The notes: generated from the sequence alone by a model not told the origin. Counted from the first letter of the stretch, positions 6,459 through 37,119 are shown. The stretch: 64,000 nt of DNA from Mycobacteriales bacterium (GCA_018376445.1 JAHABL010000001.1:278111-342110); one strand, 5' to 3'. Made by a program: numbers and translations.

Positions 6459-6497
6459 AGCTGCACGCGCACAGGTGGGTGAGGTGAGCTGGAGAGC

Positions 6498-7346
6498 TTA
6501 GTCGCGAGGCGGGAGCTCCCCCAGGTTGATCGCGCGCAACACTTGGTCGTGGAGGAGAGCGTTGGTGGCGACGGCCTCGCCGGAATGCGGTCCGGGACGC
6601 CCATCCAGAGAGCTGAAACGTCCGCCGGCTTCGCGTACCAGAATGTCGAGAGCGGCGAGATCCCACAGACAGACCTCAGGCTCTGCGGCGACGTCTACCG
6701 CACCTTCCGCCATCAGACAGTAGGAGAAAAAGTCTCCGTAGCCGCGCATGCGCCACGAGTAATTCATCATATTGATGAAGTTGTCCATGAGGTTTTTGCG
6801 CTTCCACCCGATGAGGCTGGAGAAGGAAATAGAGGCGTGGCGTAGTTCGCTCACTTCGGAGACGTGAATCTGTTTGGCAGGGGAGTTGGCGGAGCAGCGG
6901 TAAGCCCCTGCGCCTTCTGCTGCCCACCAGCGTCGTTGTAGAGCAGGGGCGGAGATCACACACATGCGGGGGATTCCATCCACCATAAGGGCGATAAGGG
7001 TGGCCCAGGTGGGGACGCGACGGACAAAATTTTTCGTGCCATCGATGGGATCGATGACCCACTGGCGTCCGACGTAGTCGGCGTTACCCCCGAACTCTTC
7101 ACCCACAATGTCATCTGTAGGGCAGTGGTCGTTGAGGTAGGTACGGATGGCGCGTTCGACGGCAAGGTCCGCATCAGAGACCGGGGTAAGGTCCGGCTTC
7201 GCCTTCACCTTGAGGTTGTCCGCCTCGAAGCGGTCCATGGTGATGCTGTCGGCAATGTTCGCCAGCTCCCAGGCAACACGCAGGTCGTCCTGATACTCGC
7301 CTTCCAGACCAGGAAGGGCGTCGACGGCAGGTGGGTAGGCGTTCAC
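6498..7346 (-). CDS. Inositol monophosphatase family protein (HisN/ImpA/SuhB-like; possibly histidinol-phosphate phosphatase).
   Basis: IMPase motifs [12 protein letters not shown] and [10 protein letters not shown]. About 280 aa. Lies near prfB, as hisN does in corynebacteria. Confidence 0.8.
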
Positions 7347-7448
7347 TGCCAGCTTCTCCTCTGTTACGGCTCGGGGAGTCTATCGTCCCGATGCAGCTCG
7401 CATGGTTTCTTAAGGCTAGCCTACTCCAGCCGTTGGAGGATACTGGGC

Positions 7449-8300
7449 TTAGTCGCCACGAAGTGCCGCAGCAGCTTCCTCGACGAGGTGTGGTGCGCCA
7501 GCGAGTGTCCATATTTCCCCGGCTGCTTCAACGTCCTGTACGGCTCCACCGACTCCGAGGACGAGGGCGGCGCCGGGCAGGCGATCCCAGTCGGGGAGGC
7601 GGTGTTGCATCCACAGGTCGGTGTCGCCTTCAGCAACCGACGCGAGGTCGACAGAGGCGGAGCCCATCATGCGGTAGGTGGCGGAGCGGCCAATAACCCG
7701 CAGGAAAGCAGCGTAAATGTCGGGGTCTTGGTAGAAGGTGGGGTGTAGGTAGGTGTTGATGCAGGCGGCCGCCAGGTTGTCTCGGTGGGGTCGTCCGGTT
7801 TCTCCAAAGTGAGGGAGGGGTTGTCCATTGCGGGTGGTGGGGATGTTTGGGCCGCCCATCCAGAGCGTGTGGGTGCAGGGTTGGTAGACAGCGCCTGCGG
7901 TGACGTTTGTGGAGGGCGAGAGGTAGCGGTCGCGGTTACTGAACCGTGCAGGGTTGGTGGGGTCCTGTTCGGTGAAGGCGATGGCGGAGCACCAGTATTC
8001 GAAGTTGTTGGCGAAGTTGTAGGTGCCGTCAACGGGGTCGATGGTCCAGCGAGTTCCGCTGGTGCCGAGGTGGGTGGTGCCTTCTTCGCCGAATACTGCG
8101 TCGGCGGGGCGTTGGTCGTGGAGGGTGGTGACGACGTAGTCTTCCGCAGCGCGGTCGGCTTGTGTGACGACGTCGGAGATGGAAGTTTTGGTGTCGATGG
8201 TGAGGCCGCCCGCACGGAGAGAGAGGGCGAGGTTTCCGGCGGTGTGGACGAGGTTGGCTGCGAGATACAGATTGCTTGTCGTCGTGTTCACGCTTTCCAC
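7449..8300 (-). CDS. Second inositol monophosphatase family protein, a tandem paralogue of 6498..7346.
   Basis: WTIDPVDGTYNF and AVFGEEG motifs. Confidence 0.75.
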   Translation of the reverse strand: MESVNTTTSNLYLAANLVHTAGNLALSLRAGGLTIDTKTSISDVVTQADRAAEDYVVTTLHDQRPADAVFGEEGTTHLGTSGTRWTIDPVDGTYNFANNFEYWCSAIAFTEQDPTNPARFSNRDRYLSPSTNVTAGAVYQPCTHTLWMGGPNIPTTRNGQPLPHFGETGRPHRDNLAAACINTYLHPTFYQDPDIYAAFLRVIGRSATYRMMGSASVDLASVAEGDTDLWMQHRLPDWDRLPGAALVLGVGGAVQDVEAAGEIWTLAGAPHLVEEAAAALRGD

Positions 8301-8427
8301 GGTAGCGGCTTGCGCGGAGTTTTTCGAGGGCGTCTGGAGGAGAGGGGAGGAGGTAGGACAGAAGATTGGTCAGGGGATGTGCCCGGGGCGGGTAAGCGGG
8401 GGTGCGGCTCTGTAGTGAGGGCTGGTG

Positions 8428-9606
8428 CTAGTGGTGGATTTGCGTGACGAGGGTGACGAGCTGTGTCCGGTTGAGTTTGCCGTTGCTGCGGTGTGGTAGT
8501 TGGGGGAGGTAGATGACGTTTTTGGGAATGGAGTAGTGGCCGAAGGTGGGTTCGAGCAAGGCGTTGAGTTCTTCCAGTGTGGGGGCTGTGGTGGCGTTGG
8601 TGGGGACGATAACGGCGGTGACGCACTGTCCGAAGTGCGGGTGGGGGAGGCCGATAACAGCACATTCCTTGACGCCGGGATGGGTGTAGAGTGCGGCTTC
8701 TAGGGGTTGGGGGATGACGATGATGCCGCCGCTGTTGATGGCCTCGTCGAGGCGTCCGTCGATGATGAGGCGTCCGGCGTCGTCCCAATGACCGAGGTCG
8801 TGGGTGTGGTACCAACGTTGGCCGTCGTCGTAGGTCCAGTCGGGGTGGGTGGCCTTTCCCACGTATCCGTCGGCGAGGGTGGCTCCGCTGATGCTCACTC
8901 GGTGGGTGGTGGGATCGATGCGGAGCTGAGTGGCGGGGCCGGGGCGGCCGTTGAAGAGCACTCCGCCAGCGACTTCGGAACTGCCGTAGCCGCGCACGAT
9001 AGTGAGTCCTGCGCGGGTGAGGAAGGTGTTGATGTGATCGGGGAGGGGAGCGCCACCGGAGAGGATCGCGTCGAGGTGGGAACAGGAAGCGAGGGCTTCT
9101 TCTGCAATGCGTCTGGTGGGGAGGTGGGAGGAGTGGAGGCCGTGGTAGAGGGTGTCGAGTTGGCTTGGGACGAGTGAGGCGTAGTGGCGTCGGTGCGAGG
9201 TGGTGCTGCCGTCGCGGAGTTCGGCGATGGCGGCGGGGAGATCCGCTAGGTGGAAGCCATTCTCTATGGGGATGGTGACAGGGTCGTATCCGGCGTGGAG
9301 GCTGCGGAGGAGGACTTGCATGCCGATGATGTGGTGGGCGGGGACGGCGAGGAGCCAGCGTCCGGGGCCGCCGAGTGCCGCGTGGGTGCTGTCGATGGCG
9401 GCGCGGAGTGCGGCGGCGGAGAGGCGGGCACCTTTGGGGGTTCCGGTGGTGCCGGAGGTGGCCATGATGAGGGCGCTGCCGGGAGAAGGGTGTCCAACGA
9501 AGTGTCTGTGCAGGCGCTCGGCCTCGGAGGGGTTAGGGGGGAGGGCGAGGAGTGGCGGGGTGGTGCCGTGGAGGCAGTCTCGCAGTACAGGGTAGATTGA
9601 GGCCAT
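8428..9606 (-). CDS. AMP-dependent synthetase/ligase, short form (o-succinylbenzoate-CoA ligase MenE-like). The ORF track extends to 9828. The likely start is MASIYPVL at 9606.
   Basis: ATSGTTGTPKGARLS P-loop-like AMP-binding motif. About 390 aa. Further motifs: GYGSSE, IDGRLDEAINSGG. Confidence 0.65.
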   Translation of the reverse strand: MASIYPVLRDCLHGTTPPLLALPPNPSEAERLHRHFVGHPSPGSALIMATSGTTGTPKGARLSAAALRAAIDSTHAALGGPGRWLLAVPAHHIIGMQVLLRSLHAGYDPVTIPIENGFHLADLPAAIAELRDGSTTSHRRHYASLVPSQLDTLYHGLHSSHLPTRRIAEEALASCSHLDAILSGGAPLPDHINTFLTRAGLTIVRGYGSSEVAGGVLFNGRPGPATQLRIDPTTHRVSISGATLADGYVGKATHPDWTYDDGQRWYHTHDLGHWDDAGRLIIDGRLDEAINSGGIIVIPQPLEAALYTHPGVKECAVIGLPHPHFGQCVTAVIVPTNATTAPTLEELNALLEPTFGHYSIPKNVIYLPQLPHRSNGKLNRTQLVTLVTQIHH

Positions 9607-9698
9607 GTGGGCGTATGGAGGTAGCGGTAATGCTTCGATGAGGTCCTGCACAGCGCCATTATTGAACAGTGTGTAGGAGAATGCAATATGCTCGCTAT

Positions 9699-10862
9699 AT
9701 GACCACCCGCAACCATGCGCAGACCTCGCCGCAGCAGAGTGCACTTCACTCCTCACAGCGCGTCTCACACCTCGCCCCGGAAATCCCGATTGTTCGCCAG
9801 GACACGCCGCGGTCAGCCGCCCACACATTCATCGATCTAGCTAGCAACGACTATCTGGGATTAGCGAGACATCCGCGCGTACAGACCGCCGCACATCAGG
9901 CAATCGACCAGTGGGGTGTCGGAGCAACAGGCTCTCGGGTCGTCGCTGGTACTGTCCCGCCGCACCATTGCTGTGAAGCGAAACTCGCCGGCTTTCTCGG
10001 TTTCCCTGCCGCGCTGCTCTTCTCCTCGGGATACCTTGCAAATCTGGCAGCCATTACTGCGCTCGTCCCGTCGGGAGCCACTCTGATTTGCGACACCCGC
10101 AACCATGCCAGCCTGATCGACGCCTGCCGCCTCACCACAGCTCCCCGCATCATCTGTGATGTGACGAAGCCGCAGGAACTTGCCGCCGCACTCCAGCAGG
10201 CGACCTCCTCAGTCGTTGTCTGCGATGTTGTGGACTCCACCGATGGTAGTGTGCTCGACATCCCCTCGATTTACCACGCCACTCATGCGGCAGGTTCGCT
10301 GCTCATCGCTGATTTCGCACACGGGCTCGGAGTGCTGGGACACGATGGGCGAGGCGCGCTTCCCACGCTGTGGACGAATGGACAGGCGCCAACAGATCTC
10401 GTCATCACCTGCACCCTTTCTAAAGCTCTGGGGAGTCAAGGGGGAGCAGTACTATGCTCGGCGGAGCAACGGCAACATTTGGTCAATACCGCCCGCTCCT
10501 TCATCTTCGATACTGCCCTCGCACCTGCCTGTGCTGCTGCCGCCACCACCGCACTGGAGATTATCGCTAGTGAACCGACACGCGTTGAGAGGCTCCACCA
10601 GCACATGTCAGCGTTAACGAACGCTCTCGATCTCCCTTCGGTCACTGCTGGAGTAGTTGCCATCCCCCTGGGTGATCCCACACGTGCTATCGCCGTTCAC
10701 CGTACGGTGCTCTCCGCTGGAGTAGGGGTGGGGTGCTTCCGTCCGCCAAGTGTGCCGTGGCAACGAAGCGGATTGCGGTTAGGGGGTCGAGCTGACCTCT
10801 CGGCTGAACAGTTGATCCGCGCCATTACCGTGTTGCGAGACGCACTTCAACAGGGGAATTAA
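9699..10862 (+). CDS. bioF: Class II aminotransferase, 8-amino-7-oxononanoate synthase (BioF)-like. Divergent from the ligase gene.
   Basis: NDYLGL, SSGYLANLAAI and TLSKALGSQGG (PLP-lysine region) motifs. Start taken at MTTRNHAQ. Confidence 0.65.
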   Translation: MTTRNHAQTSPQQSALHSSQRVSHLAPEIPIVRQDTPRSAAHTFIDLASNDYLGLARHPRVQTAAHQAIDQWGVGATGSRVVAGTVPPHHCCEAKLAGFLGFPAALLFSSGYLANLAAITALVPSGATLICDTRNHASLIDACRLTTAPRIICDVTKPQELAAALQQATSSVVVCDVVDSTDGSVLDIPSIYHATHAAGSLLIADFAHGLGVLGHDGRGALPTLWTNGQAPTDLVITCTLSKALGSQGGAVLCSAEQRQHLVNTARSFIFDTALAPACAAAATTALEIIASEPTRVERLHQHMSALTNALDLPSVTAGVVAIPLGDPTRAIAVHRTVLSAGVGVGCFRPPSVPWQRSGLRLGGRADLSAEQLIRAITVLRDALQQGN

Positions 10863-11007
10863 TAATTGTTGCCAAAGTTTCCGGAATTTATCTGAGTTAT
10901 TGTTAGCGACGTAGCGTCCAGCCTGCGCAAATGCTGAAGAGCCTAAAGTTGTCCAAAATGCCAACCGTGTCTTGGGAGCGGAATAAATCCGCCTTTAGTA
11001 TGTCGGC

Positions 11008-11529
11008 ATGAGCAATACCGACAATCTTCCTATCGTCTACTTCCTCGGTGCCAACAACGTCGAGAAGAGCGCAATGGCGGAAGCGATCACCAACGCCCGC
11101 CATGGAAACCTCTTCAAGGCCTACTCTGCCGGTACGAACTGTGAACCGGATCTCCCACGGGATGCAGATTGTGTCGCCGCCTGTGCCGAAGCCGGCATTA
11201 CCCTTGACGGCGTCTCCACCCCCGTTGATGAAGAACTTTTCCGCAACGCCAATCTCGTCATCATCGTCTCCCGCAAGATGATGATCGATCCGGTACCTGG
11301 AATGAAAGGCATCATCCTTCGCTGGGGAGTTGATGAACCCGCCGACACCGGCATTTCCGGCCGCGAACGCGCCAACCTGCTGCGCGACTACCTCATTCGG
11401 CGTGTCGACGCCCTTGCCGTCGGAGCCATGACCAGCGATGGTACCCTCCGTTCCGGTTACCGCGGAGAAGATATCCTCGACCAAACCGGTGGGCAGAAGT
11501 CCAGTCGTCGCCTCACCGGCGTGAAGTAA
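11008..11529 (+). CDS. ArsC/low-molecular-weight phosphotyrosine phosphatase-fold protein that lacks the catalytic Cys and Arg. Probably a pseudo-enzyme.
   Basis: IVYFLGANNVEKSAMAEA aligns with the CX5R P-loop VxFxCTGNSCRSQMAEG (C to G, R to K). KAYSAGT and the ADLVIxV-like segment are conserved. The antisense ORF 10903..11538 is rejected. Confidence 0.6.
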   Translation: MSNTDNLPIVYFLGANNVEKSAMAEAITNARHGNLFKAYSAGTNCEPDLPRDADCVAACAEAGITLDGVSTPVDEELFRNANLVIIVSRKMMIDPVPGMKGIILRWGVDEPADTGISGRERANLLRDYLIRRVDALAVGAMTSDGTLRSGYRGEDILDQTGGQKSSRRLTGVK

Positions 11530-11710
11530 CCACATCACTACTACTTTTTAGCTAGCCCCCGTCACTCCCGACGGGGGCTAGCTGCATCTCCTGATCTAGA
11601 CGGATGTCCGTTTTCTGAATGCAAGAAGAAAAATCGCCCACCCAATAGGAAAAACAGTAGAAAATGCACTATTTTTACAGTGAACATATCTTCCTATAGG
11701 AGTCCCACTC

Positions 11711-13105
11711 ATGCCTCGTAATTTCCGGGTTCGACTCGCCAGCGCCACCCTCGCGTGTGCCACCATAGCTGGCAGCCTGGTGATCAATCCCACCCAGGCT
11801 CAGGCTGCTAGCAACGGCATTGCACTTACGCCTCCCATGGGCTGGAACAGCTGGAATGCCTTCCACTGCAACATTACGGAAGGAAAGATCCGCGCTATGG
11901 CCGACGCCATGGTGAAATTGGGTCTCAAAGATGCTGGCTACACCTACATCAACATTGATGATTGCTGGCAAGCCTCCACTCGTGACGCCAACGGCAACCT
12001 CCGAGGGGACCCCAAGCGCTTTCCGTCAGGCATGAAGGCACTGGCCGACTACATCCACTCGAAAGGCCTGAAGGCTGGCATCTACGCCACCCCCGGCACC
12101 CGCACTTGTGCAAACATCTGGGACAAGTATCCAGGAAAACTTGGCTCGCTGGGGCACGAACAGCAGGATGCTAACATCTTCGCCAAGTGGGGCTATGACT
12201 TCCTGAAGTACGACTGGTGCAACGCTGACGAAGATGGTCAGGAACAGCAAGCCGCATACACCAAGATGGCTCGTGCTCTGAAGAAGACCGGTCGTCCCAT
12301 CGTGTACTCCATCCACAGTGAGCCCGAGCTTCCGGTGCTCGCTTGGGAACCCACCGTCGCTAACATGTGGCGCACTACTCCTGACATCCAGGACAACTGG
12401 ACCTCCATGATCGGTACCGGTCTCATCAACCTCTTCGGGCAGCGCTACCAGCGCCCCGGCGCCTGGAATGATGCGGACATGTTGGAGGTTGGCAACGGTG
12501 GGATGACCTACCGCGAATATCGCACCCACATGACCCTTTGGTCCATCATGGGTTCCCCCCTCATGATCGGCACTGATCTGCGTAAAATTCACGCGTCGAA
12601 TCTGGAGCTGCTCAACAATCCTTACACGATCGCCATCAATCAGGACCCGCTGGGTGCCGCCGCGCAGACTGTCTACTTCAACGGGAAGTCCCTCATTGTG
12701 GTGCGCCGTCTGACCTACGGTCGTGTCGCCGTTGCCATCTTCAACCTCTTTGGGCAAGTACAGCAGAATTCCCTGTGGTTCAGCACCCTCACCCAGCACG
12801 GTCTGAAGCAATCCAGCAACTACCTCGTGACAGACGTGTGGGGCGAATACAACCGCCTCGGAAAACGGTATGTGGAAGGCCGCCTGGAAAAGCACGACTC
12901 CATCTTCTACATTGTCACGCCGATCACGGCTCGCCAAGCGGATGCTTTCAAGCGCTCCGAAGCAGCACGCAAAGCGTACGAAAAGGCAGAAGCCAAGCGT
13001 GTCCGTGAAGAAAAGGCTCAGGCTTACTCTGAAAAGGTAAAGGCGCAGAAGGAAGCCTCAACGCCAGCTAAAGACAAGAGCCCGCTCGACAAACTCTTTG
13101 GCTAA
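11711..13105 (+). CDS. Secreted GH27 alpha-galactosidase (melibiase) with a Lys/Glu/Ala-rich C-terminal tail of about 55 aa.
   Basis: Signal peptide (ATIAGSLVINPTQAQA). GH27 motifs PPMGWNSWNAF and YTYINIDDCW. RBS aggagt before the ATG. Confidence 0.85.
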   Translation: MPRNFRVRLASATLACATIAGSLVINPTQAQAASNGIALTPPMGWNSWNAFHCNITEGKIRAMADAMVKLGLKDAGYTYINIDDCWQASTRDANGNLRGDPKRFPSGMKALADYIHSKGLKAGIYATPGTRTCANIWDKYPGKLGSLGHEQQDANIFAKWGYDFLKYDWCNADEDGQEQQAAYTKMARALKKTGRPIVYSIHSEPELPVLAWEPTVANMWRTTPDIQDNWTSMIGTGLINLFGQRYQRPGAWNDADMLEVGNGGMTYREYRTHMTLWSIMGSPLMIGTDLRKIHASNLELLNNPYTIAINQDPLGAAAQTVYFNGKSLIVVRRLTYGRVAVAIFNLFGQVQQNSLWFSTLTQHGLKQSSNYLVTDVWGEYNRLGKRYVEGRLEKHDSIFYIVTPITARQADAFKRSEAARKAYEKAEAKRVREEKAQAYSEKVKAQKEASTPAKDKSPLDKLFG

Positions 13106-20050: not shown

Positions 20051-20420
20051 GGGGCTGAACGGTTTCGACTGCGTATGTTGCGTCGGGAGAAGCGTGCCGG
20101 TGCAGGCTAGAGACCACCGTGAGCGTCGTAGCAAACTATTAAGCGCCGAAAATACTCAGCGCGACTACGCTCTCGCTGCCTAATAGCGACGGCTAGTCTG
20201 TGGGCCCGGAAGTGTCTCCGATCCGGTGTTTTCCCACATCATCAAGGGGGCTTACTGTGAGCTGCGGCTACGGCAGCCTACAGGACATCTAACAGTGGCT
20301 GGGTTCGCCTTCTGGACTTGTGAGCGTGTTCCAGAGAACCGAGTAATGGTGTAGTTCACTGCGCACGGAGAAGTCCTGTCAAAGCTGCGGAGGACCCGGG
20401 TTCGATTCCCGGCAGCTCCA
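20051..20420 (+). ncRNA. ssrA: tmRNA (ssrA). The predicted tag peptide is AENTQRDYALAA (tag ORF 20145..20183).
   Basis: 5' end GGGGCTGAACGGTTTCGAC and 3' T-arm/acceptor GGGTTCGATTCCCGGCAGCTCCA. Near-collinear with mycobacterial tmRNA. Tag coding region GCC GAA AAT ACT CAG CGC GAC TAC GCT CTC GCT GCC TAA. Confidence 0.9.
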
Positions 20421-20556
20421 CAATATGGAAATTCCCAGGTCATTAACGACCTGGGAATTTCTTTATCTTTGCTGGTAGTTGCATGTTTTCATCTTAACCC
20501 CTTGTGGACAGTTTGGGACACCTTTAGACTCAGTTTTGGCACGTTTTTGGCGGCAG
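20421..20556 (+). repeat. Copy 1 of the attP/integrase-proximal repeat. It includes a 13-bp-stem hairpin (AAATTCCCAGGTC..GACCTGGGAATTT, 20428..20460) that functions as a replacement terminator for the tmRNA.
   Basis: Direct comparison with 30231..30366. Confidence 0.75.
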
Positions 20557-30157: not shown

Positions 30158-30230
30158 GGGGCTATGGCGCAGCTGGTAGCGCACCACACTGGCAGTGTGG
30201 GGGTCACGGGTTCGAGTCCCGTTAGCTCCA
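30158..30230 (+). tRNA. tRNA-Ala (anticodon GGC).
   Basis: Manual fold gives a 7-bp acceptor stem with G3:U70, anticodon loop CTGGCAG and T-loop TTCGAGT. CCA is not encoded. Confidence 0.9.
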
Positions 30231-30366
30231 CAATATGGAAATTCCCAGGTCACTAATGACCTGGGTTTTTCTTTATCTCTGCTGGTAGTTGCATGTTTTT
30301 ATCCTAACCCCTTGTAGACAGTTTGGGGCACCTTTAGACTTAGTTTTGGCACATTTTTGGCACAGA
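30231..30366 (+). repeat. Copy 2 of the attP/integrase-proximal repeat. It contains the hairpin CCCAGGTC..GACCTGGG-TTTTT (30244..30270).
   Basis: See 20421..20556. Confidence 0.75.
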
Positions 30367-30381
30367 CTAGTGAGGTGCACC

Positions 30382-31626
30382 ATGGCAGCGGGAGAGTTCG
30401 GCAACACTAGACAACTCCCCTCAGGTAGGTGGCAGGCGCGCTACAGATACAGGGGGCAAGACTATAAAGCTCCCGAAACCTTCAAAACTAGGAAGATAGC
30501 CGAAGGGTGGCTCAGTCACGAAAAGAAACTTATCGACCTTAACGCATGGATACCACCACAAGAGCGCCTAGCCCTCCAGGAGAAACACCAGCAGGAGATG
30601 GAGTTAACCGTGGGGTTATGGCTCGAGCAATTCCACGACAGTCTACGAGACGCTAAAGCCTCCACCCTGCAAACATATAGGCGGACCATCACTAATAGGA
30701 TCCTTGACCCTGTTGCGCCGGGCAATGAGGTGGAGGACATTACCCGGCTTAGAGACATTCCCCTGGTGGAGTTGACGAAACAGGACGTTTACCAGTGGTG
30801 GGATGCTATTGAGCGCACCTACGACACGCCTGAGACGAATAGGAAGGCCTACCGGAGGTTGAAAGCCGCGGGGCGAGAGGCTGTGGAAAGGGAGCTTATA
30901 GGGAGTAACCCTGTGAATGTTCCCGCAGCGAATAAGAGTGTGGCGAAAGATTCACCTTATCTTCCCAAGACGGAGGAGCTGCATAAGATTCTGACGGAAG
31001 TCCCGGCACGCTATCGGCTTATTACCGCCCTCATACTGTTTCACGGCCTGCGTATCGGAGAGGCGATCGCCCTGGAGGTGGATAGTGTTGTCGCCCATGA
31101 CACCACGGGAGGGCACCGTTACGGGGTCCGGGTGAAACAGAATGCGCAGAGGATTACCCCGCCGGGGAAGTCTACATTCATGCTGGTGCAGCCTCCTAAG
31201 AGTAGGGCAGGGAATAGGGAGGTGCCGATTATGCCCGAGTTTATTCCCCTCCTGGAGGAGCACCTGGACAAGTATGTGGCCGAGTCTCCTACGGTAGTGC
31301 GTTTGTCTAAAGAATTTGGGGGCGGTACCCGCCCGGCGCAACTGCTGACGACGACGGGGGCGGGCTTAATGGTGATGGATACGTCCTACCGTAGCGTGCT
31401 GAAACGTGCCACGGAGCGGGCGGGGGTGTCGCCTTTGATTAAGCCGCATAGCGGGCGTAGGTGGTTGGTGACAACGTTGGCGGAGCACGGGGCGCACGTG
31501 AAGGAAATTTCGCGGATTCTCGGAGATGAGGACTTGGAGGTGATTATGTCTATCTATATGCAGGTGAGGGCAGAGAGAACAACAGAACTCATGGATATTG
31601 TCAGCAAGTCGGTAGCGCGGGGATAG
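30382..31626 (+). CDS. int: Tyrosine-type site-specific integrase.
   Basis: N-terminal SAM-like/arm-binding region (GRWQARYRYRG..). C-terminal catalytic residues (R..HxxR..Y: LRIGEAIALEVDSV, HSGRRWLVTTL, IMSIYMQV). Start at ATG 30382 with RBS gaggtg. The upstream ORF extension lies inside the repeat and is rejected. Confidence 0.9.
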   Translation: MAAGEFGNTRQLPSGRWQARYRYRGQDYKAPETFKTRKIAEGWLSHEKKLIDLNAWIPPQERLALQEKHQQEMELTVGLWLEQFHDSLRDAKASTLQTYRRTITNRILDPVAPGNEVEDITRLRDIPLVELTKQDVYQWWDAIERTYDTPETNRKAYRRLKAAGREAVERELIGSNPVNVPAANKSVAKDSPYLPKTEELHKILTEVPARYRLITALILFHGLRIGEAIALEVDSVVAHDTTGGHRYGVRVKQNAQRITPPGKSTFMLVQPPKSRAGNREVPIMPEFIPLLEEHLDKYVAESPTVVRLSKEFGGGTRPAQLLTTTGAGLMVMDTSYRSVLKRATERAGVSPLIKPHSGRRWLVTTLAEHGAHVKEISRILGDEDLEVIMSIYMQVRAERTTELMDIVSKSVARG

Positions 31627-31630
31627 CGGC

Positions 31631-32452
31631 ATGAAACGGCATATATGGCGTAGTGAGTGGGCCGAGGAAAACGTTGGGTTTGCAGTCATGGTTATGGACG
31701 GCGACTACCCTATGGGCCGGTTAATTATTTGTGGCACGCCTAGAGAGATACTGGTAGAGAACGCTATCTTTGTGGGGGAAAAGTGGACCGATAGGCGACC
31801 AGAAGTTTTTACTCCCCGGCGTAGAACAGAGGTCACTCGTATTCGAGCTAAAGGTGAAGACTATCGACGGCAAATTAAAGAGGAAACCAAAAAAATAGGT
31901 GACTGTGAGCAACATTTTCTCGTGTTTCCTGATTTTGAGGTGCGCAACAGAAAACTAGACCCACTCATATATAAAGTCATACAAGATGGTCACCTTGTCG
32001 TGGAGTACAGCTTTATTAAACATGTGGTTGACAGTGGGCTTATTAACCACATTTGCGATTCATGGACAGATGAAGAAAGACGGGAGTATCTGTTTTATCG
32101 AACTCTGATACATATCCTAGACGGGGACAAAATTATGGGCATTATAGAAGGTTACAAGGGGGGGAAATTTATCGTTTTCGACACTCACGATATGTCTGAA
32201 TGGTATGCCAGGTCTTCTTCTCGTACTTGGGCACCAGCTGAAGAAGATAGGGGAATGCGGGCAGAGCACGTAAAAGGTAAAGGGAGATTGTCTGGCAGTA
32301 TTCGTTTCCCCGATTTCTGTATTGAGCGTGAAGAACTCTACCAGCTAATTTCCCGGTACTTATTCCCCAGTGGTCTAACAGGCAGTGACTTTTTTAAAGT
32401 GCAGTATGACACTTTGAAAGAACTGGTTGAGCATGGACGCATGAATAAATAG
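31631..32452 (+). CDS. Hypothetical protein of 273 aa encoded by a markedly low-GC gene. It is orphan cargo between int and xis.
   Basis: Clean ORF, AT-rich relative to its flanks. No recognisable motif. Confidence 0.6.
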   Translation: MKRHIWRSEWAEENVGFAVMVMDGDYPMGRLIICGTPREILVENAIFVGEKWTDRRPEVFTPRRRTEVTRIRAKGEDYRRQIKEETKKIGDCEQHFLVFPDFEVRNRKLDPLIYKVIQDGHLVVEYSFIKHVVDSGLINHICDSWTDEERREYLFYRTLIHILDGDKIMGIIEGYKGGKFIVFDTHDMSEWYARSSSRTWAPAEEDRGMRAEHVKGKGRLSGSIRFPDFCIEREELYQLISRYLFPSGLTGSDFFKVQYDTLKELVEHGRMNK

Positions 32453-32679
32453 AACAATATGGGTCCCATTAGTACTGTTGGTGTGTTATTGTGGCGTCGG
32501 CGTTGGAATACAGTGTGACCCGTCCACTACCTCCGACAATAGCCACTCACGTGGTGCATAAACGGGAACAAAGCAAGCTCTGTATCTTGCTTAGGCGCTA
32601 ATTGGGCGCTTTGACCTTGAGGCTCTGCGAATAGCGGGGCGGATACCTCGTGCTTTGAGGTAGAAAAGGTCAGACATAA

Positions 32680-32874
32680 ATGTCTACTCCAACTCGCCAC
32701 TATGTTTCTATCCGTGAAGCCGCTGACTACTGGTCTGTCTCCACGAAAACGATTCGCCGGTGCATTAACCGGGGAGAACTCACAGGCTACTACCCCTGTG
32801 GTAGGACTCTACGCCTCGATCTCAATGAGCTAGAGGCAATTGCACAGGCTAACGCCACTCGTAAGGTGGCGTAA
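32680..32874 (+). CDS. xis: Excisionase / AlpA-like helix-turn-helix DNA-binding protein.
   Basis: 64 aa. YVSIREAADYWSVSTKTIRRCINRGEL is a typical MerR/Xis HTH. Confidence 0.7.
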   Translation: MSTPTRHYVSIREAADYWSVSTKTIRRCINRGELTGYYPCGRTLRLDLNELEAIAQANATRKVA

Positions 32875-32878
32875 GGGC

Positions 32879-33463
32879 ATGGAGACAAAAGAATACCCCG
32901 CCGTAAGCGGGGCACCTTCGAGCACTCTTCAATCATACCCGGTAGGCGTAACAGAAACTGATACTGCTCCTGCTACCGGTATCCTTGCCGTCAGACCACA
33001 GCTAGACACAGTTTTCTTGACTGCTCTTCTCCATGCGGGGAACCGGGGGAAAACTGTTCTGGAACATGTAGACGCTACAGACTTCCATAACCCGGTCTAC
33101 GGTGACCTGTACGAGAGAATAAAGGCCGTCGCCGCTACAGGTGACCTCACGCACCTACGAGTGTGGGGCACGCTCACTGCAACCCGCTGGACTGAGGACT
33201 CTTACTGGCATGGACGAGTCCTAAACCTTGTTGCGCCGGGCAGTGGCGGCTATGAGGATATCGCACTCGCTGCTGCTCAGCTGGTGCAAGGCTCACTGCG
33301 TCACCGTGTGTTTAATCTAGGCGTGGAGTTGCGACAGGCGGCCTGTGAGAGGTCGCTAGAGGAACTTATGGTGTTCCTTGCTGACTCTGCCCGCATGGAG
33401 ATGATTCGTGCGACTGTGGCGCGTCTAGAGACCCTTACAGCGCTTACAGGGGGTGCAAAGTAA
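32879..33463 (+). CDS. Protein resembling the DnaB helicase N-terminal domain, probably a replication-initiation accessory.
   Basis: DTVFLTALLHAGNRGKTVLEHVDATDFHNPVYGDLYERI resembles the DnaB N-terminal domain. Translationally coupled to the next gene (ATGA overlap at 33463). Confidence 0.5.
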   Translation: METKEYPAVSGAPSSTLQSYPVGVTETDTAPATGILAVRPQLDTVFLTALLHAGNRGKTVLEHVDATDFHNPVYGDLYERIKAVAATGDLTHLRVWGTLTATRWTEDSYWHGRVLNLVAPGSGGYEDIALAAAQLVQGSLRHRVFNLGVELRQAACERSLEELMVFLADSARMEMIRATVARLETLTALTGGAK

Positions 33464-34950
33464 TGACTACCCCCGATACCACTACCGACACCACAGAGAC
33501 GCGGAGAAGCTGCCTTGTGAGGGCTACTGATATGGCACTGCCTAAACGCCGCAAGTGGATAGTGCCAGGACTATTGCCCCTCGGTTGCCTTGTGTTCCTA
33601 GCTGGTGATGAGGGCATTGGCAAAAGTACTTTCGGGCTACACCTTGCAAGTGTCATCACCAGTGGCAAAGGTGACACCGGTCTCAAGATTCCCGCCGGAA
33701 ACGCCCGGCGCGTATATCTCTACAGCACAGAAGATAATTGGGGTGACACTACTAGTCCGGCGCTCAAAGCAATGGGCTGTGATTTTGAAAATCTCTCACT
33801 CTTTTTCGACGACACAGACGGCACGTCTTATCCGAGCTTAGGGGCCAACGTCATCAAAGATATGTACGAAGACTCTGAGTGTTATGGTGCCCCGGCACTG
33901 ATCATTGTGGATAACTTTATTGACACTCTCCCCGCCAATGTTCAGCAGAGTAAACCCGAGCAGTTGAGGAGTGTTCTAAAACAATGGGTCAAGATAGCGA
34001 AACGGCTTAATGCCACTGTGTTGTGTCTTCATCACACGAACAGGTCAGGGTCTGACAATAGCCGCGACCAGTGGGCGGGCAGCAGCGAATACCGTAAAGC
34101 TGCCCGTGTTGCTCTGATGGCTAAAGACAATGAGGACGGCACCTTTACCGTAGGCGTGGATAAGTGCAATCTGTCACCAGAGAGACGCGCCGTCATCATG
34201 AAGAACATGTCCACTTCCACACCCTTGCTCTATGAGGGAGAAGAGAAACCCGAAACTGTAGAGTCCCACACAGTTGACTATGTGGGAGAGTCTGACAGGT
34301 CCATTGCTGAGCTTGTGGAAGATAAAGCCGATGACGATACGGGCGGGGATGAAAGGACTGAGACTCTCAGAGCCTTCCTTCTCTCTCTCAGTGCCCATAG
34401 TGGAAGTGCCACTCGTAGGGAATTGTGTAATGGCCTCAAGGACGAGGGCTATTCCGACAGGAAGATAAAACAAGCTATCAAGACGGCTAAGAGTCGCCAT
34501 TTCGTTGACTCGGACAGGTCAGGGTTTCAGGGTGAAACAACATTCGCTCTCACAGTCGCAGGGCGTGACATTCTCCAAAATGTCCACTTGGCTGCCCAAA
34601 ATGGTCACCAAAATGTCCAAAATAAAACAGCAGGTCAGCCCCAAAATGTCCAAAATGTCCAACATGTTCACCCCTATAGGGTGACTAAGGGCAATGCGGC
34701 GGCAAAAAAGTCCCCCGGCACTGTCTCACAGGGCAGTGATTCTGGGGCTCTCCGCACTTGGCTAGTAGATGGTCTGAGTGTTGAGCAGTCGCAGGGCGTG
34801 GAGTCTCTCTATGGGCAACTGCCCCGCTCTCTCCGTGACTCTCATAGCCGGGACAGTGTGAAGGAAGTTTTGGACTCCATGGTTGAGAAAGGCAATGTGG
34901 TGAAGGACTCTCACGGCCGTTATCTGAAGGCGGGTGAAACTTTGTTTTAG
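33463..34950 (+). CDS. RepA-like RecA-fold ATPase (AAA_25 / primase-helicase-associated) replication protein with a C-terminal wHTH-like region.
   Basis: Walker A GDEGIGKST. Walker B ALIIVDNFID. LCLHHTNRSG. A C-terminal QNVQ-rich segment is encoded by the iterons. Confidence 0.7.
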   Translation: MTTPDTTTDTTETRRSCLVRATDMALPKRRKWIVPGLLPLGCLVFLAGDEGIGKSTFGLHLASVITSGKGDTGLKIPAGNARRVYLYSTEDNWGDTTSPALKAMGCDFENLSLFFDDTDGTSYPSLGANVIKDMYEDSECYGAPALIIVDNFIDTLPANVQQSKPEQLRSVLKQWVKIAKRLNATVLCLHHTNRSGSDNSRDQWAGSSEYRKAARVALMAKDNEDGTFTVGVDKCNLSPERRAVIMKNMSTSTPLLYEGEEKPETVESHTVDYVGESDRSIAELVEDKADDDTGGDERTETLRAFLLSLSAHSGSATRRELCNGLKDEGYSDRKIKQAIKTAKSRHFVDSDRSGFQGETTFALTVAGRDILQNVHLAAQNGHQNVQNKTAGQPQNVQNVQHVHPYRVTKGNAAAKKSPGTVSQGSDSGALRTWLVDGLSVEQSQGVESLYGQLPRSLRDSHSRDSVKEVLDSMVEKGNVVKDSHGRYLKAGETLF

Positions 34951-35045
34951 GGCTATGTAAGTGAACAAGTTGGACATTTTGGACATGTTGGCCGTGACCT
35001 GCTGTTTTACTGTGACCATTTTGGTGGACATTTTGTGGACATTTT
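34566..35045. repeat. Iteron array. Four direct copies of CAAAATGTCCA lie at 34566-34670, within the 3' end of the rep gene. At least three inverted copies of TGGACATTTTG lie at 34966-35045, just past the rep stop. This is a probable origin of replication or rep-binding site.
   Basis: Repeats read directly from the sequence in both orientations, about 290 bp apart. Confidence 0.6.
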
Positions 35046-35211
35046 GGGCGGCTTCAGTGTTGAAATGGCCTAATGGTTAAGAAGAGAGAGACCCCTAGGT
35101 GTATTCCCGGGGGTCTCTTTCTGTGTGCCTGTTGCGCCGGGCAGGTGGTGGAGGTTGAGGTGAGGTCAGGACTTTACCCCGAAATCGGGGAAAACGTTCC
35201 CCCTGAGTGGT

Positions 35212-35345
35212 GAGGTGGTGTTCCGCCACCCCATGGGCGCAAGGAGGTGGTGTTCTGCCACCCCCCTAGTGGGTGCAGGGGTGCGGTATTCCGCCGCCCC
35301 CTTATTTTTAGCGAGGTGAAAGGGGGTCGGAATTTGCGACACCCT
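35212..35345. repeat. Three to four tandem degenerate GC-rich palindromic repeats of about 22 bp (GGTGGTGTTCCGCCACCCC-like) in an 880-bp non-coding stretch of the island.
   Basis: 35212-35232, 35254-35275 and 35279-35302, with a weaker copy at 35323-35345. Each can form a GGTGG/CCACC hairpin. Confidence 0.5.
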
Positions 35346-35982
35346 TTATGGGAGCCGTTTTAAGCCGCTTTAGGGATACTCCATGAGTGGAGTGGCGCGG
35401 GAGGTGGGAAAAGTGTCCGAGAATTGATTTGAGGGCCAAATAGAGGGGTGCAGACGATGGAATAATGGAGTGCTATCCCATCTATGCGGGTAGCTGGTGG
35501 GGTATGGCCTAAAAATCACCAGAAACACACACTCGGACCACTTCACGCCGGTTAGTCGTCCTTTCCCCCCGCACTGGGTAGGGGGGTATTCCGTATCTAG
35601 GCCATTTCCTCATAGATGCCCCTGAGAGCCACGTAGAGGAGCAAATACATTTGCCTAGGCAAATCACACATAGAACGAAGAGAAATAGCCTTAAAAACGT
35701 TTATAGAGCCTGAAATATTACCCGGGGGGGGTAGAGCTGCTAAGCCCATGGGATGCTTGGGGTGTGGGGTGGGGGTGGTCCCCGTGGGGTGTGTGCTGTA
35801 TCCGCTATAGAAACCACGTCTGCTAGGGAAACTGCTAAACCTGTACTCAACCAAAGCGCCTAGGCCATACGGGCTTATGTGGTGTGGGGGCGGGGGTAGT
35901 GGCCCTGGTGACGGATGGAGTAAACCCCCACCACTACAGGTAAGCAGCAGCAGGGGTTTAATCTTTGGTGTGGATACTATCG

Positions 35983-36210
35983 TTACCAGGTTTCCTGGTA
36001 GTGGTGTTCTAGGACATGGTTGACGCAGGTTCTCACTACCTGTTCGCCGTTGTAGCCGTTGCGTGTGATCGCCTTTGCGGCATAGTCGAGAACACTGGTG
36101 AGTTCCTCACTGGTGAGTGGCCGGGTTCCAGGGTAGGGGGAGCCTTTGGGCATCGACATGTATAGGTAGACCTGTGCAACCGACGCATAGATGAGTTCTG
36201 GGAGTGTCAT
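35983..36210 (-). CDS. Hypothetical small protein, the distal gene of a two-gene operon at the island right end.
   Basis: 75-aa ORF overlapping the upstream stop (ATGA). Confidence 0.4.
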   Translation of the reverse strand: MTLPELIYASVAQVYLYMSMPKGSPYPGTRPLTSEELTSVLDYAAKAITRNGYNGEQVVRTCVNHVLEHHYQETW

Positions 36211-36896
36211 TATTCGCCTTTAATGGTTGCTTGTGCGTAGTCGTCGAGGTCATGCTGCCACCTAGCTCCGAGGAGGGCGGTGAACTGTGTCAGGTGGGAG
36301 GCAGTGTTGCTGGAGGCTACCTGCCCGTCTTTATCGTGGAGGAGGATGAGACCCTCACCAGTAGGCGAGACACCAAGGTAGAGGGTGAACGCGCCTAGAT
36401 GGGCGACTCTTTGCCCGAGCCGGTAGCTGCCCATGTTAGCGAATGGTGTGATGTCGCAGTCATGCCAGGTTAGCTCGGTGAAGCTGCTAAGTCCGTGCCG
36501 GTAGCGGTTCACTAGCTCACTGTGCAGTCCTGGTGTGAGAGACAATTCGACAAGCATGTGAAGGGCGATAGTGTCGGAGTCTTCAAGGTGTGTGTTGCCG
36601 CCCCACAGGCTGGCTGCTATCTCCCTAGCCCTCTTTGTTTTGGCGGGGGTGAGGGTTTCTTCCACTAGGTAGCCGTAGCAGTCATTGCCGGGTGCCTTGT
36701 CGATGTCTCGCATGAAGACCATGGCAAGGTCTATGGGGGTGCGCCGTGCTGTGGGGTTGGTGAGGATTTCGGTGAAGAGGACGGGGAGAAAATCGGGGTA
36801 TTCCACTTTTACTTCGTCCATAATGGGTGTGTCCATGTGGTCTTCCTTTTCTGGCAGTTTTGAAAACTTTGGCATATTTTTGGCACGCGCTCGCAT
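36210..36896 (-). CDS. Hypothetical protein. A shorter start at MDTPIMDEV near 36836 is possible.
   Basis: 228-aa ORF on the opposite strand from the rest of the island, next to attR. Confidence 0.5.
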   Translation of the reverse strand: MRARAKNMPKFSKLPEKEDHMDTPIMDEVKVEYPDFLPVLFTEILTNPTARRTPIDLAMVFMRDIDKAPGNDCYGYLVEETLTPAKTKRAREIAASLWGGNTHLEDSDTIALHMLVELSLTPGLHSELVNRYRHGLSSFTELTWHDCDITPFANMGSYRLGQRVAHLGAFTLYLGVSPTGEGLILLHDKDGQVASSNTASHLTQFTALLGARWQHDLDDYAQATIKGE

Positions 36897-36946
36897 AGCT
36901 ATGTGCCTTTTTATGCTTCTACCAGTAGGAATACTGATTAATTATG

Positions 36947-36965
36947 GAGCCCCGTTAGCTCCACA
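36947..36965 (+). repeat. attR, a direct repeat of the tRNA-Ala 3' end.
   Basis: GAGCCCCGTTAGCTCCACA versus tRNA 30214..30232 GAGTCCCGTTAGCTCCACA. Confidence 0.8.
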
Positions 36966-36971
36966 GAGTAT

Positions 36972-37004
36972 AAAACCCCTGGTCAGAAATGACCAGGGGT
37001 TTTG
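36972..37004 (+). terminator. Probable original terminator of tRNA-Ala, now displaced to lie after attR.
   Basis: AAAACCCCTGGTC-AGAAAT-GACCAGGGGTTTT. Confidence 0.6.
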
Positions 37005-37119
37005 TTTATTTTCCTGCTTCATTACATAGTTTTGCGCACTCCCGTCACCTCTCATGAGCACCATTGTGAGGCACAATACGATGTAAATTGTGGAATTTTG
37101 GCGAAAATTGGGCGTTAGG

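Follow-up and report, generated by a model that had tools for sequence, protein, structure and literature searches.

We describe a 6,733-bp integrative element within a 64,000-nucleotide stretch of DNA from a Mycobacteriales bacterium (GCA_018376445.1 JAHABL010000001.1:278111-342110; hereafter, the window), the host being, to judge from cluster names, a member of Lawsonella (i.e., L. clevelandensis or an uncultured Lawsonella sp.). The element, which carries seven genes, occupies the 3' end of a tRNA-Ala(GGC) gene; of strains that are nearly identical, some have it and others do not. We modestly favor reading it as a mobile, self-replicating element of a capsid-less, minimalist, phage-satellite-like type. 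Its mobility is evident from strain comparisons, its autonomous replication is very probable, and, by analogy with its relatives, it may depend on and be packaged by a helper phage. Lawsonella is an abundant commensal of human skin that is hard to culture, and our literature search found no description of mobile elements or phages of this genus. Experimentally characterized actinobacterial phage satellites are few; those of Streptomyces (PMC10690885) and the EPIP of mycobacteria, described in a preprint (PMC12822802), are of other types.

The element lies between a thioredoxin-like gene and nadE. Its target is the 3' end of the intact tRNA-Ala(GGC) gene (positions 30158 to 30231, plus strand; ARAGORN; Rfam RF00005, 67.1 bits). 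Repeat comparison and comparison with the empty site place the attL core, GAGTCCCGTTAGCTCCACA, at 30214 to 30232 and the attR core, GAGCCCCGTTAGCTCCACA, at 36947 to 36965, and the spacing of these two copies gives the length of the element. NadE of the window recurs unchanged in many public contigs. In six of them, which belong to the species of the window, the site is empty (i.e., tRNA-Ala is joined to the attR-side sequence), and the empty-site sequence equals the window sequence left of attL plus that right of attR, base for base. Because of this match, the insertion is real and precise. The original prediction, made from the sequence of the window, had described an integrative element bounded by a complete attL and a complete attR and had looked to the same locus in related strains for an empty site; both expectations are borne out. 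In no relative did we find the same 6.7 kb without flanking repeats, an arrangement that it had named as contrary to its claim. The 19-bp direct repeat that it reported is present, although not as a perfect 19-mer: the two cores differ by one mismatch in 19 nt and are exactly identical over 15 nt. The native tRNA reads GAGT and the attP copy of the element GAGC, the C at position 4 of the attR core being attP derived; therefore, the predicted crossover must lie inside the exact 15 nt (30218-32). The predicted attP junction runs from TTAATTATGGAGC through CCCGTTAGCTCCACA into ATATGGAAATTCC. Similarity between the two ends extends over a 63-nt stretch (78% identity) because similar terminator hairpins follow both core copies. 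The element-borne hairpin (30244 to 30265, plus strand; P' arm), which is 78% similar to the native one, substitutes for the native tRNA-Ala terminator (36970 to 37005, plus strand), which adjoins the tRNA directly in empty sites and was displaced by the insertion. Site-specific recombination inserted the element into the 3' end of tRNA-Ala(GGC), with the tRNA rebuilt and a terminator supplied by the element itself.

The recombination genes stand at the left end. The first encodes a tyrosine integrase (Int) of 414 amino acids (aa) (30382 to 31626, plus strand; PF00589, E = 2.6e-13; phrog_1, E = 2e-46; gene calls on 40+ contigs). Two direct TTTTGGCAC repeats (30344 to 30363, plus strand) and their partner near the other end, TTTGGCATATTTTTGGCAC (36868 to 36886, plus strand), all of repeat family D5, are candidate arm-type sites of this integrase; they lie inward of attL by approximately 130 bp and of attR by approximately 70 bp, positions that would be expected for arm sites. 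These repeats are common to both ends in every variant with the Int type of the window, and the variant whose Int is 48% identical shows another motif, likewise common to its two ends. Directly after int comes a gene that we call the slot gene (273 aa; 31631 to 32452, plus strand), and this is followed by a gene for a 64-aa excisionase/AlpA-type helix-turn-helix (HTH) protein (32680 to 32874, plus strand; PF12728 HTH_17, E = 4e-8) that scores 35 bits against the TIGR01764 "excise" model, whose excisionase cutoff is 28.8 bits.

In Lawsonella, the element belongs to a mosaic family. Other contigs carry elements of 6,474, 6,533, 7,960, and 8,149 bp in tRNA-Ala(GGC), and related elements of 6,448, 6,364, and 6,091 bp occupy tRNA-Ala(CGC) and tRNA-Ala(TGC), so that the family ranges from 6,091 to 8,149 bp. 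The backbone order is int, slot gene, excisionase-type HTH gene, the open reading frame (ORF) ORF194, an AAA_25 rep gene with iterons, approximately 1 kb of noncoding DNA, ORF75, and ORF208. Int tracks the target, being 98% identical to the copy in the window where the site is shared, 82% in TGC, and 48% in CGC, and each CGC or TGC element has its own core repeat of 15 to 20 nt. Rep identity to the window copy spans 21 to 92%. Between elements with strongly divergent Int, the synonymous divergence (dS) of ORF208 is only 0.007 to 0.035, and for this reason the right-hand module must have been exchanged recently. A recombining family has colonized three tRNA-Ala isoacceptor genes, with Int and core sequence changing together.

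Replication functions occupy the center of the element. Rep (495 aa; 33463 to 34950, plus strand) is an AAA_25 ATPase with a RepA/DnaB-like RecA fold (PF13481, E = 1.9e-24). It matches the C-terminal halves of phage primase/helicases in PHROG and is 26 to 28% identical to a Microbacterium phage primase/helicase; its nearest solved structure is RSF1010 RepA (1g8y; E = 3e-4). No primase domain was found in Rep or elsewhere in the element with Pfam and PHROG. Repeat and motif searches revealed two iteron arrays, namely, six direct copies of CCAAAATGTCCA (array 1; 34575 to 34670, plus strand) within the coding sequence for the C-terminal part of Rep, at the 3' end of rep, and five inverted copies just downstream (array 2; 34971 to 35047, minus strand). 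The resulting inverted repeat (I1) has arms of 75 nt that are 85% complementary. The whole window contains 20 matches to CCAAAATGTCCA versus 4.9 expected, and 11 of them are clustered in the two arrays. The family includes at least three Rep lineages, each with its own iteron and with the two-array layout unchanged. The two arrays together are the presumed origin, an assignment that is well supported because the iterons covary with the Rep lineage. Immediately upstream, ORF194 (32879 to 33463, plus strand), an orphan whose stop codon overlaps the rep start, is found in every variant irrespective of Rep lineage, with a ratio of nonsynonymous to synonymous substitution rates (dN/dS) of 0.3. The "DnaB-N-like" label that had been attached to it lacks statistical support: ORF194 has no Pfam match, a PDB profile search gave chance allophycocyanin matches only, and an hhalign comparison with E. 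coli DnaB residues 1 to 203 (an approximate query) aligned the expected region at E = 0.058 and approximately 1% probability.

Rep relatives with 25 to 37% identity occur across Mycobacteriales and other actinobacteria, and int-xis-rep synteny is kept at five of these loci (L020, L025, L029, L035, and L098). We scanned 150 ORFs located 1 to 8 kb downstream of rep at 28 loci of Rep relatives. Phage_capsid was the commonest Pfam family (13 matches), with TerL and portal next, and no conjugation-machinery family was among the best 25 of 67 families, a set that includes all those with at least two ORFs. By tblastn, capsid genes, with or without TerL and portal genes, were detected at 16 of 103 loci; capsid queries taken from the relatives had no tblastn match in the Lawsonella loci. 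Rep relatives in other Mycobacteriales lie mostly in tRNA islands of 9 to 11 kb that encode an HK97 capsid. Dietzia, for example, has a complete island of 9,140 bp at tRNA-Arg with the order int-xis-rep-WhiB-capsid, and another island has the order int-cI-xis-primase/rep-TerL-portal-capsid. Islands of this type, with both int and a capsid gene, have been published as the "candidate PICIs" (phage-inducible chromosomal islands), or phiRv1/2-like elements, of mycobacteria (PMC10654092; PMC10085698), which are widespread and unproven as satellites. On the evidence of its Rep and gene order, the Lawsonella element is a capsid-less relative of this lineage.

Descent from capsid-encoding islands might also mean decay, that is, an immobile remnant of a phiRv-like island kept by vertical inheritance or by a benefit to the host. 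The relatives do hold capsid, TerL, and portal genes that were not found in the Lawsonella element, and decay and rearrangement do occur in the family: one variant at the same att site (L010) retains what is left of another rep 3' end, iterons included, and a further one (L009) has a 95-aa AAA_25 fragment. However, both att sites are intact, as are all ORFs on dozens of contigs; presence or absence varies among strains with identical flanks; three integration sites are in use; and modules have been exchanged recently, the dS of ORF208 being 0.007 where Int is 47% identical. Purifying selection, moreover, acts on Int, Rep, ORF194, ORF75, and the slot gene (dN/dS, 0 to 0.5), and because of these values the orphans among them are real genes. 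We therefore consider a decayed remnant very improbable. The reading as a satellite-like replicon, which the original prediction had also drawn from the int-xis-rep-iteron architecture in preference to a prophage, is supported because the empty sites, the variants at three tRNA-Ala genes, and the capsid-bearing Rep relatives all fit it.

The right-hand part of the element consists of approximately 930 bp without credible ORFs, between iteron array 2 and ORF75, and of two orphan genes. Within the noncoding DNA, three G+C-rich hairpin repeats, GAGGTGGTGTTCCGCCACCCC (35212 to 35300, plus strand; repeat family D4), of which the last is terminator-like, precede a conserved block of approximately 200 bp (35598 to 35800), a candidate cis-acting site. 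An alignment of nine variants gave 87% mean column identity with 1-nt indels, and across the family, elements with 47%-identical Int included, the block exceeds every protein gene in conservation. An 85-aa minus-strand ORF over the block was ruled out, as variants differ by 1-nt indels. The block was likewise rejected as a structured RNA, having no Rfam match, almost no covariation on either strand with RNAalifold, and a folding energy no better than that of shuffled sequences (z about +1.3). Because there is no RNA-structure signal, the block probably acts as DNA. ORF75 (35983 to 36210, minus strand) has no family match in Pfam, PHROG, PADLOC, or NCBIfam, is identical or nearly so on >100 contigs, and has a dN/dS of 0 to 0.07. 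ORF208 (36210 to 36836, minus strand; alternative start at 36896) keeps 95 to 97% identity between elements whose Int and Rep have diverged to 47% and 22% identity, respectively; an AlphaFold2 model from a six-sequence alignment was unusable (predicted local distance difference test [pLDDT] score, 49.9). Thus, the terminal two-gene module, which had been taken for a variable cargo slot, is the most uniform part of the family, and two variants replace it. Together with ORF194 and the slot protein, ORF75 and ORF208 make four orphan proteins that are confined to this Lawsonella family.

Several rearrangements were observed on the right-hand side of other variants. The two in which the ORF75/ORF208 module is replaced are L010 and L116. 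In L010 (positions 11200 to 12800), a Clp-fold serine proteinase of the SDH type (282 aa), with a weak NCBIfam match to a ClpP-related head-maturation protease, and small ORFs stand in place of ORF75 and ORF208. In L116, which is inserted in tRNA-Ala(CGC), the equivalent of window positions 35506 to 35587 is inverted approximately 600 bp downstream of the main block (10574 to 10790 and 11332 to 11413), and the iteron arrays are approximately 1.1 kb apart versus 0.3 kb. Three independent short-read contigs (L014, L015, and L018) end approximately 800 bp downstream of rep, at the equivalent of window position ~35750, where the edge of the conserved block meets a mosaic junction (35797 to 35855). 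Because all three break at this one junction, element variants are suggested to coexist within single samples.

Whether the element travels with phages or by other means has to be judged from its gene content and its relatives. It may be an integrated plasmid-like replicon or an integrative mobilizable element that moves without phages (i.e., by conjugation in trans, in vesicles, or by transformation), in which case the conserved block would be a transfer site (oriT or clt-like). [quoted passage not shown] Nevertheless, searches with Pfam and PHROGs found no relaxase, FtsK/TraB-type translocase, Spd, or Nudix/Kor gene in the element; a blastn search of a plasmid database with the whole element returned a 137-bp integrase match only; and capsid genes, rather than conjugation families, dominate the neighborhoods of the Rep relatives within the scan described above. 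A phage-free mode of transfer consequently appears unlikely.

The capsid-less, satellite-like reading that we favor has to be set against a number of negative results. In agreement with the original prediction, which had stated that there are no structural or packaging genes, searches with Pfam and PHROGs and tblastn comparisons with phages detected neither capsid, terminase, tail, nor lysis genes. No ORF had a capsid-morphogenesis match in Pfam, PHROG, or NCBIfam, a result that leaves room for unrecognized analogues among the orphans, and the search for a small terminase gave a single phrog_57 match, to the Xis HTH (E = 0.055). The following observations weigh against involvement of a helper phage: (i) blastn of the whole element against 50,697 phage records gave no nucleotide match; (ii) ORF208 and the slot protein had no tblastn match in phages; (iii) the attP junction was not found in IMG/VR, in JGI metagenomes, or in any fetched contig; (iv) the conserved block was not found in IMG/VR, where three motifs gave chance matches only; (v) neither terS nor a capsid-morphogenesis or other hijacking gene can be recognized; and (vi) the link to capsid-bearing islands comes from 25 to 37% Rep identity and shared synteny and not from the element itself. 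Items i, iii, and iv amount to absence of evidence and no more. We know of no Lawsonella phage, and none turned up in our searches. In the JGI metagenomes, the first motif of the conserved block recovered one further family member and one chance match.

The slot gene is hypervariable and bears on a third alternative, in which the main role of the element is antiphage defense. The gene has a GC content of 44.5% and a dN/dS of 0.26, and its identity to the window copy ranges from 16 to 96%, varying independently of Int. Its product has no Pfam, PHROG, PADLOC, or NCBIfam match; a profile search of 1.84 billion representative proteins returned three relatives, all from this family, and word-index searches returned two matches for the slot protein and five for ORF208. 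An AlphaFold2 model based on three sequences was unusable (pLDDT, 46.5). Profile comparison nonetheless places the slot proteins (162 to 273 aa) in one family, the 273-aa form having a single module followed up by a weak duplicate of it. The gene always lies directly after int, starting 2 to 5 nt downstream of it or, in L012 and L126, overlapping it by 4 nt (ATGA). Hence, the low-GC orphan is not random cargo; it belongs to one hypervariable family with a constant position. Because this situation matches that of the int-overlapping gene of the PICMIs of Vibrionaceae (chromosomal minimalist islands that are phage inducible), we infer that the slot protein may be a core, fast-evolving partner of Int, not cargo.

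Under the defense alternative, the slot gene, ORF75/ORF208, or the Clp-fold protease module of L010 would represent new defense systems on a hitchhiking element. Satellites often hold defense genes near int or distally, as with PICMI UP2 (PMC10803314); hypervariability is expected of a protein in conflict with phages; and the distal module is replaced in the two variants described above. In the wider lineage, an island in a Mycolicibacterium metagenome-assembled genome (L035; positions 6010 to 11013) contains int, a Cro-like gene, xis, and a gene for a 798-aa primase-Rep, with a 1,667-aa Type ISP restriction-modification enzyme directly downstream as an example of defense cargo at the equivalent position. 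However, PADLOC applied to 17 proteins, variant modules included, gave generic HTH matches only, so that the antiphage cargo proposed earlier received no defense match for any cargo protein. ORF75 and ORF208 are near invariant rather than diverse, and the int-coupled slot proteins, as a single family in a fixed position, fit a core function better than a swappable cargo. A primary role in defense is thus quite improbable. Outside the element, a 943-aa MmeI-family restriction-modification gene (L119; 8282 to 11113) lies just beyond attR in a strain with a tRNA-Ala(TGC) element; it is placed outside on account of the position of the att repeat.

Our preferred reading, a capsid-less satellite-like island, entails the following sequence of events. 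Int and the excisionase-type HTH protein, perhaps with the slot protein, would very probably excise a 6.7-kb circle, and Rep would, with similar probability, bind the two inverted iteron arrays and replicate the circle with host primase and polymerase. To judge from relatives and architecture, the amplified DNA might then be packaged into particles of a helper phage. Packaging might perhaps proceed as a concatemer, which is possible because the element is small and has no capsid-remodeling genes. The near-invariant right-hand module (i.e., the conserved block, ORF75, and ORF208) would be the best candidate for interaction with the helper, whether through a packaging signal or through hijacking proteins. 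A more specific proposal is that the Lawsonella family consists of true phage satellites and forms, within actinobacteria, a minimalist lineage without a capsid that arose from capsid-encoding phiRv-like islands and converged on the seven-part architecture of PICMIs; the slot protein would be an excision or induction factor that reads helper cues, and the block, ORF75, and ORF208 would form a new packaging-hijack module. We offer this proposal tentatively and regard it as somewhat doubtful.

Two further observations concern the window. A 12-mer, GTTGCGCCGGGC, has four exact copies in the 6.7-kb element and none in the remaining 57 kb; 0.67 matches would be expected in the whole window with one mismatch allowed. 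The copies lie in int (30712 to 30723, plus strand; 31331 to 31342, minus strand), in ORF194 (33230 to 33241, plus strand), and in the noncoding DNA (35131 to 35142, plus strand), in differing frames and orientations, and their positions are conserved in variants; it looks like a DNA-level motif. Elsewhere, the window contains a tmRNA gene (20051 to 20421; tag, AENTQRDYALAA) followed by a dip in G+C content at 20 to 22 kb. A second island beside the tmRNA gene was considered and rejected, there being no flanking repeats and a constant gene order in all strains examined.

If these elements do form a satellite family, a minimalist design of int, int-coupled gene, AlpA, and replicase would have evolved independently in Gram-positive, high-GC bacteria, and the family would represent the smallest gene set compatible with a satellite lifestyle in Mycobacteriales. 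It would also provide compact tools for integration and replication in a genus that is genetically intractable, namely, Int/attP pairs for three tRNA-Ala sites and Rep/iteron origins with three specificities. New excision-control or capsid-hijacking functions can be sought in the four conserved orphan proteins and in the conserved noncoding block.

In comparison with known systems, the element differs from prophages in its size (6.7 kb, seven genes) and in that structural, packaging, and lysis genes were not found. The int, orphan, xis, RepA-like ATPase, iteron, and terminal two-gene components listed in the original prediction all exist. With AICEs (PMC2440964), it shares actinobacterial tRNA integration, int-xis-rep modules, and a similar compactness, but it has no FtsK/TraB-type transfer genes, spread genes, or Pif/Kor regulators, and its Rep is neither RepSA nor a prim-pol. 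Classical PICIs, such as the Staphylococcus aureus pathogenicity islands (SaPIs), resemble it in the layout of int, regulator or xis, and rep with an iteron origin, in site-specific integration, and in having no tail or lysis genes; the Lawsonella element is smaller and has no recognizable terS, capsid-morphogenesis, or Stl-type repressor gene. Three of the five PICI core components in the SatelliteFinder definition (PMC10085698) can be assigned, one of them tentatively. The integrase is represented by the PF00589 and phrog_1 matches, and the regulation module (an alpA, merR, or stl homologue) is putatively represented by the 64-aa HTH_17 protein; for the primase-replicase module, the element has the AAA_25 helicase-type Rep with cognate iterons and no detected primase domain. 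The phiRv-like candidate PICIs (PMC10654092; PMC10085698) likewise integrate at tRNA genes in Mycobacteriales, and their genes for a tyrosine integrase, an HTH_17 Xis, and an AAA_25 Rep homologous to that of the element follow the same order. They are defined by an integrase and an HK97-type major capsid gene, some with TerL and portal, whereas the Lawsonella element has no capsid gene, is 2 to 4 kb shorter, and carries other genes that have no counterpart there. The marine VEIMEs, integrative mobile elements encapsidated in virions (PMC9618062), are similarly small, with an integrase, AlpA, helicase-type replication genes, no capsid, and many orphans; they are defined by concatemers recovered from virions, whereas the Lawsonella element is known from sequence, and the hosts and genes are unrelated.

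The closest architectural parallel is with PICMIs. The experimentally proven PICMI115 of Vibrio has 6,110 bp and consists of int, iolg, alpA, up1, prim, noncoding DNA, and up2, and the int-overlapping gene of PICMIs is required for excision and belongs to 13 unrelated families (PMC10803314). The element had been called unusually small, and small it is, but PICMI115, with the same gene order, provides a precedent. The likeness extends to size (6.1 kb versus 6.1 to 8.1 kb), to short direct end repeats, to the absence of capsid or remodeling genes in both, and to the order of int, diverse int-adjoining gene, AlpA/HTH_17, small gene, replicase, long noncoding region, and distal accessory gene(s). 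The PICMI model specifies co-located int and AlpA (PF05930 or PF12728), and the Lawsonella element has PF00589 with PF12728; it also specifies an int-overlapping or contiguous gene (iolg/icg), of which the slot gene is a positional analogue. The differences are that replication in the Lawsonella element is assigned to a helicase-type Rep of the AAA_25 family, accompanied by iterons, the DUF3987/DUF5906 primase being unmatched in Pfam; that the target is tRNA-Ala rather than the fis locus and the host an actinobacterium; and that protein homology is demonstrable only for generic Int and HTH regions, in an element known so far as a DNA sequence. Because the PICI, PICMI, candidate-PICI, and AICE definitions each apply only in part, the Lawsonella element, which by its predicted gene functions works like a minimalist satellite, is nevertheless best placed as a member of no defined family.

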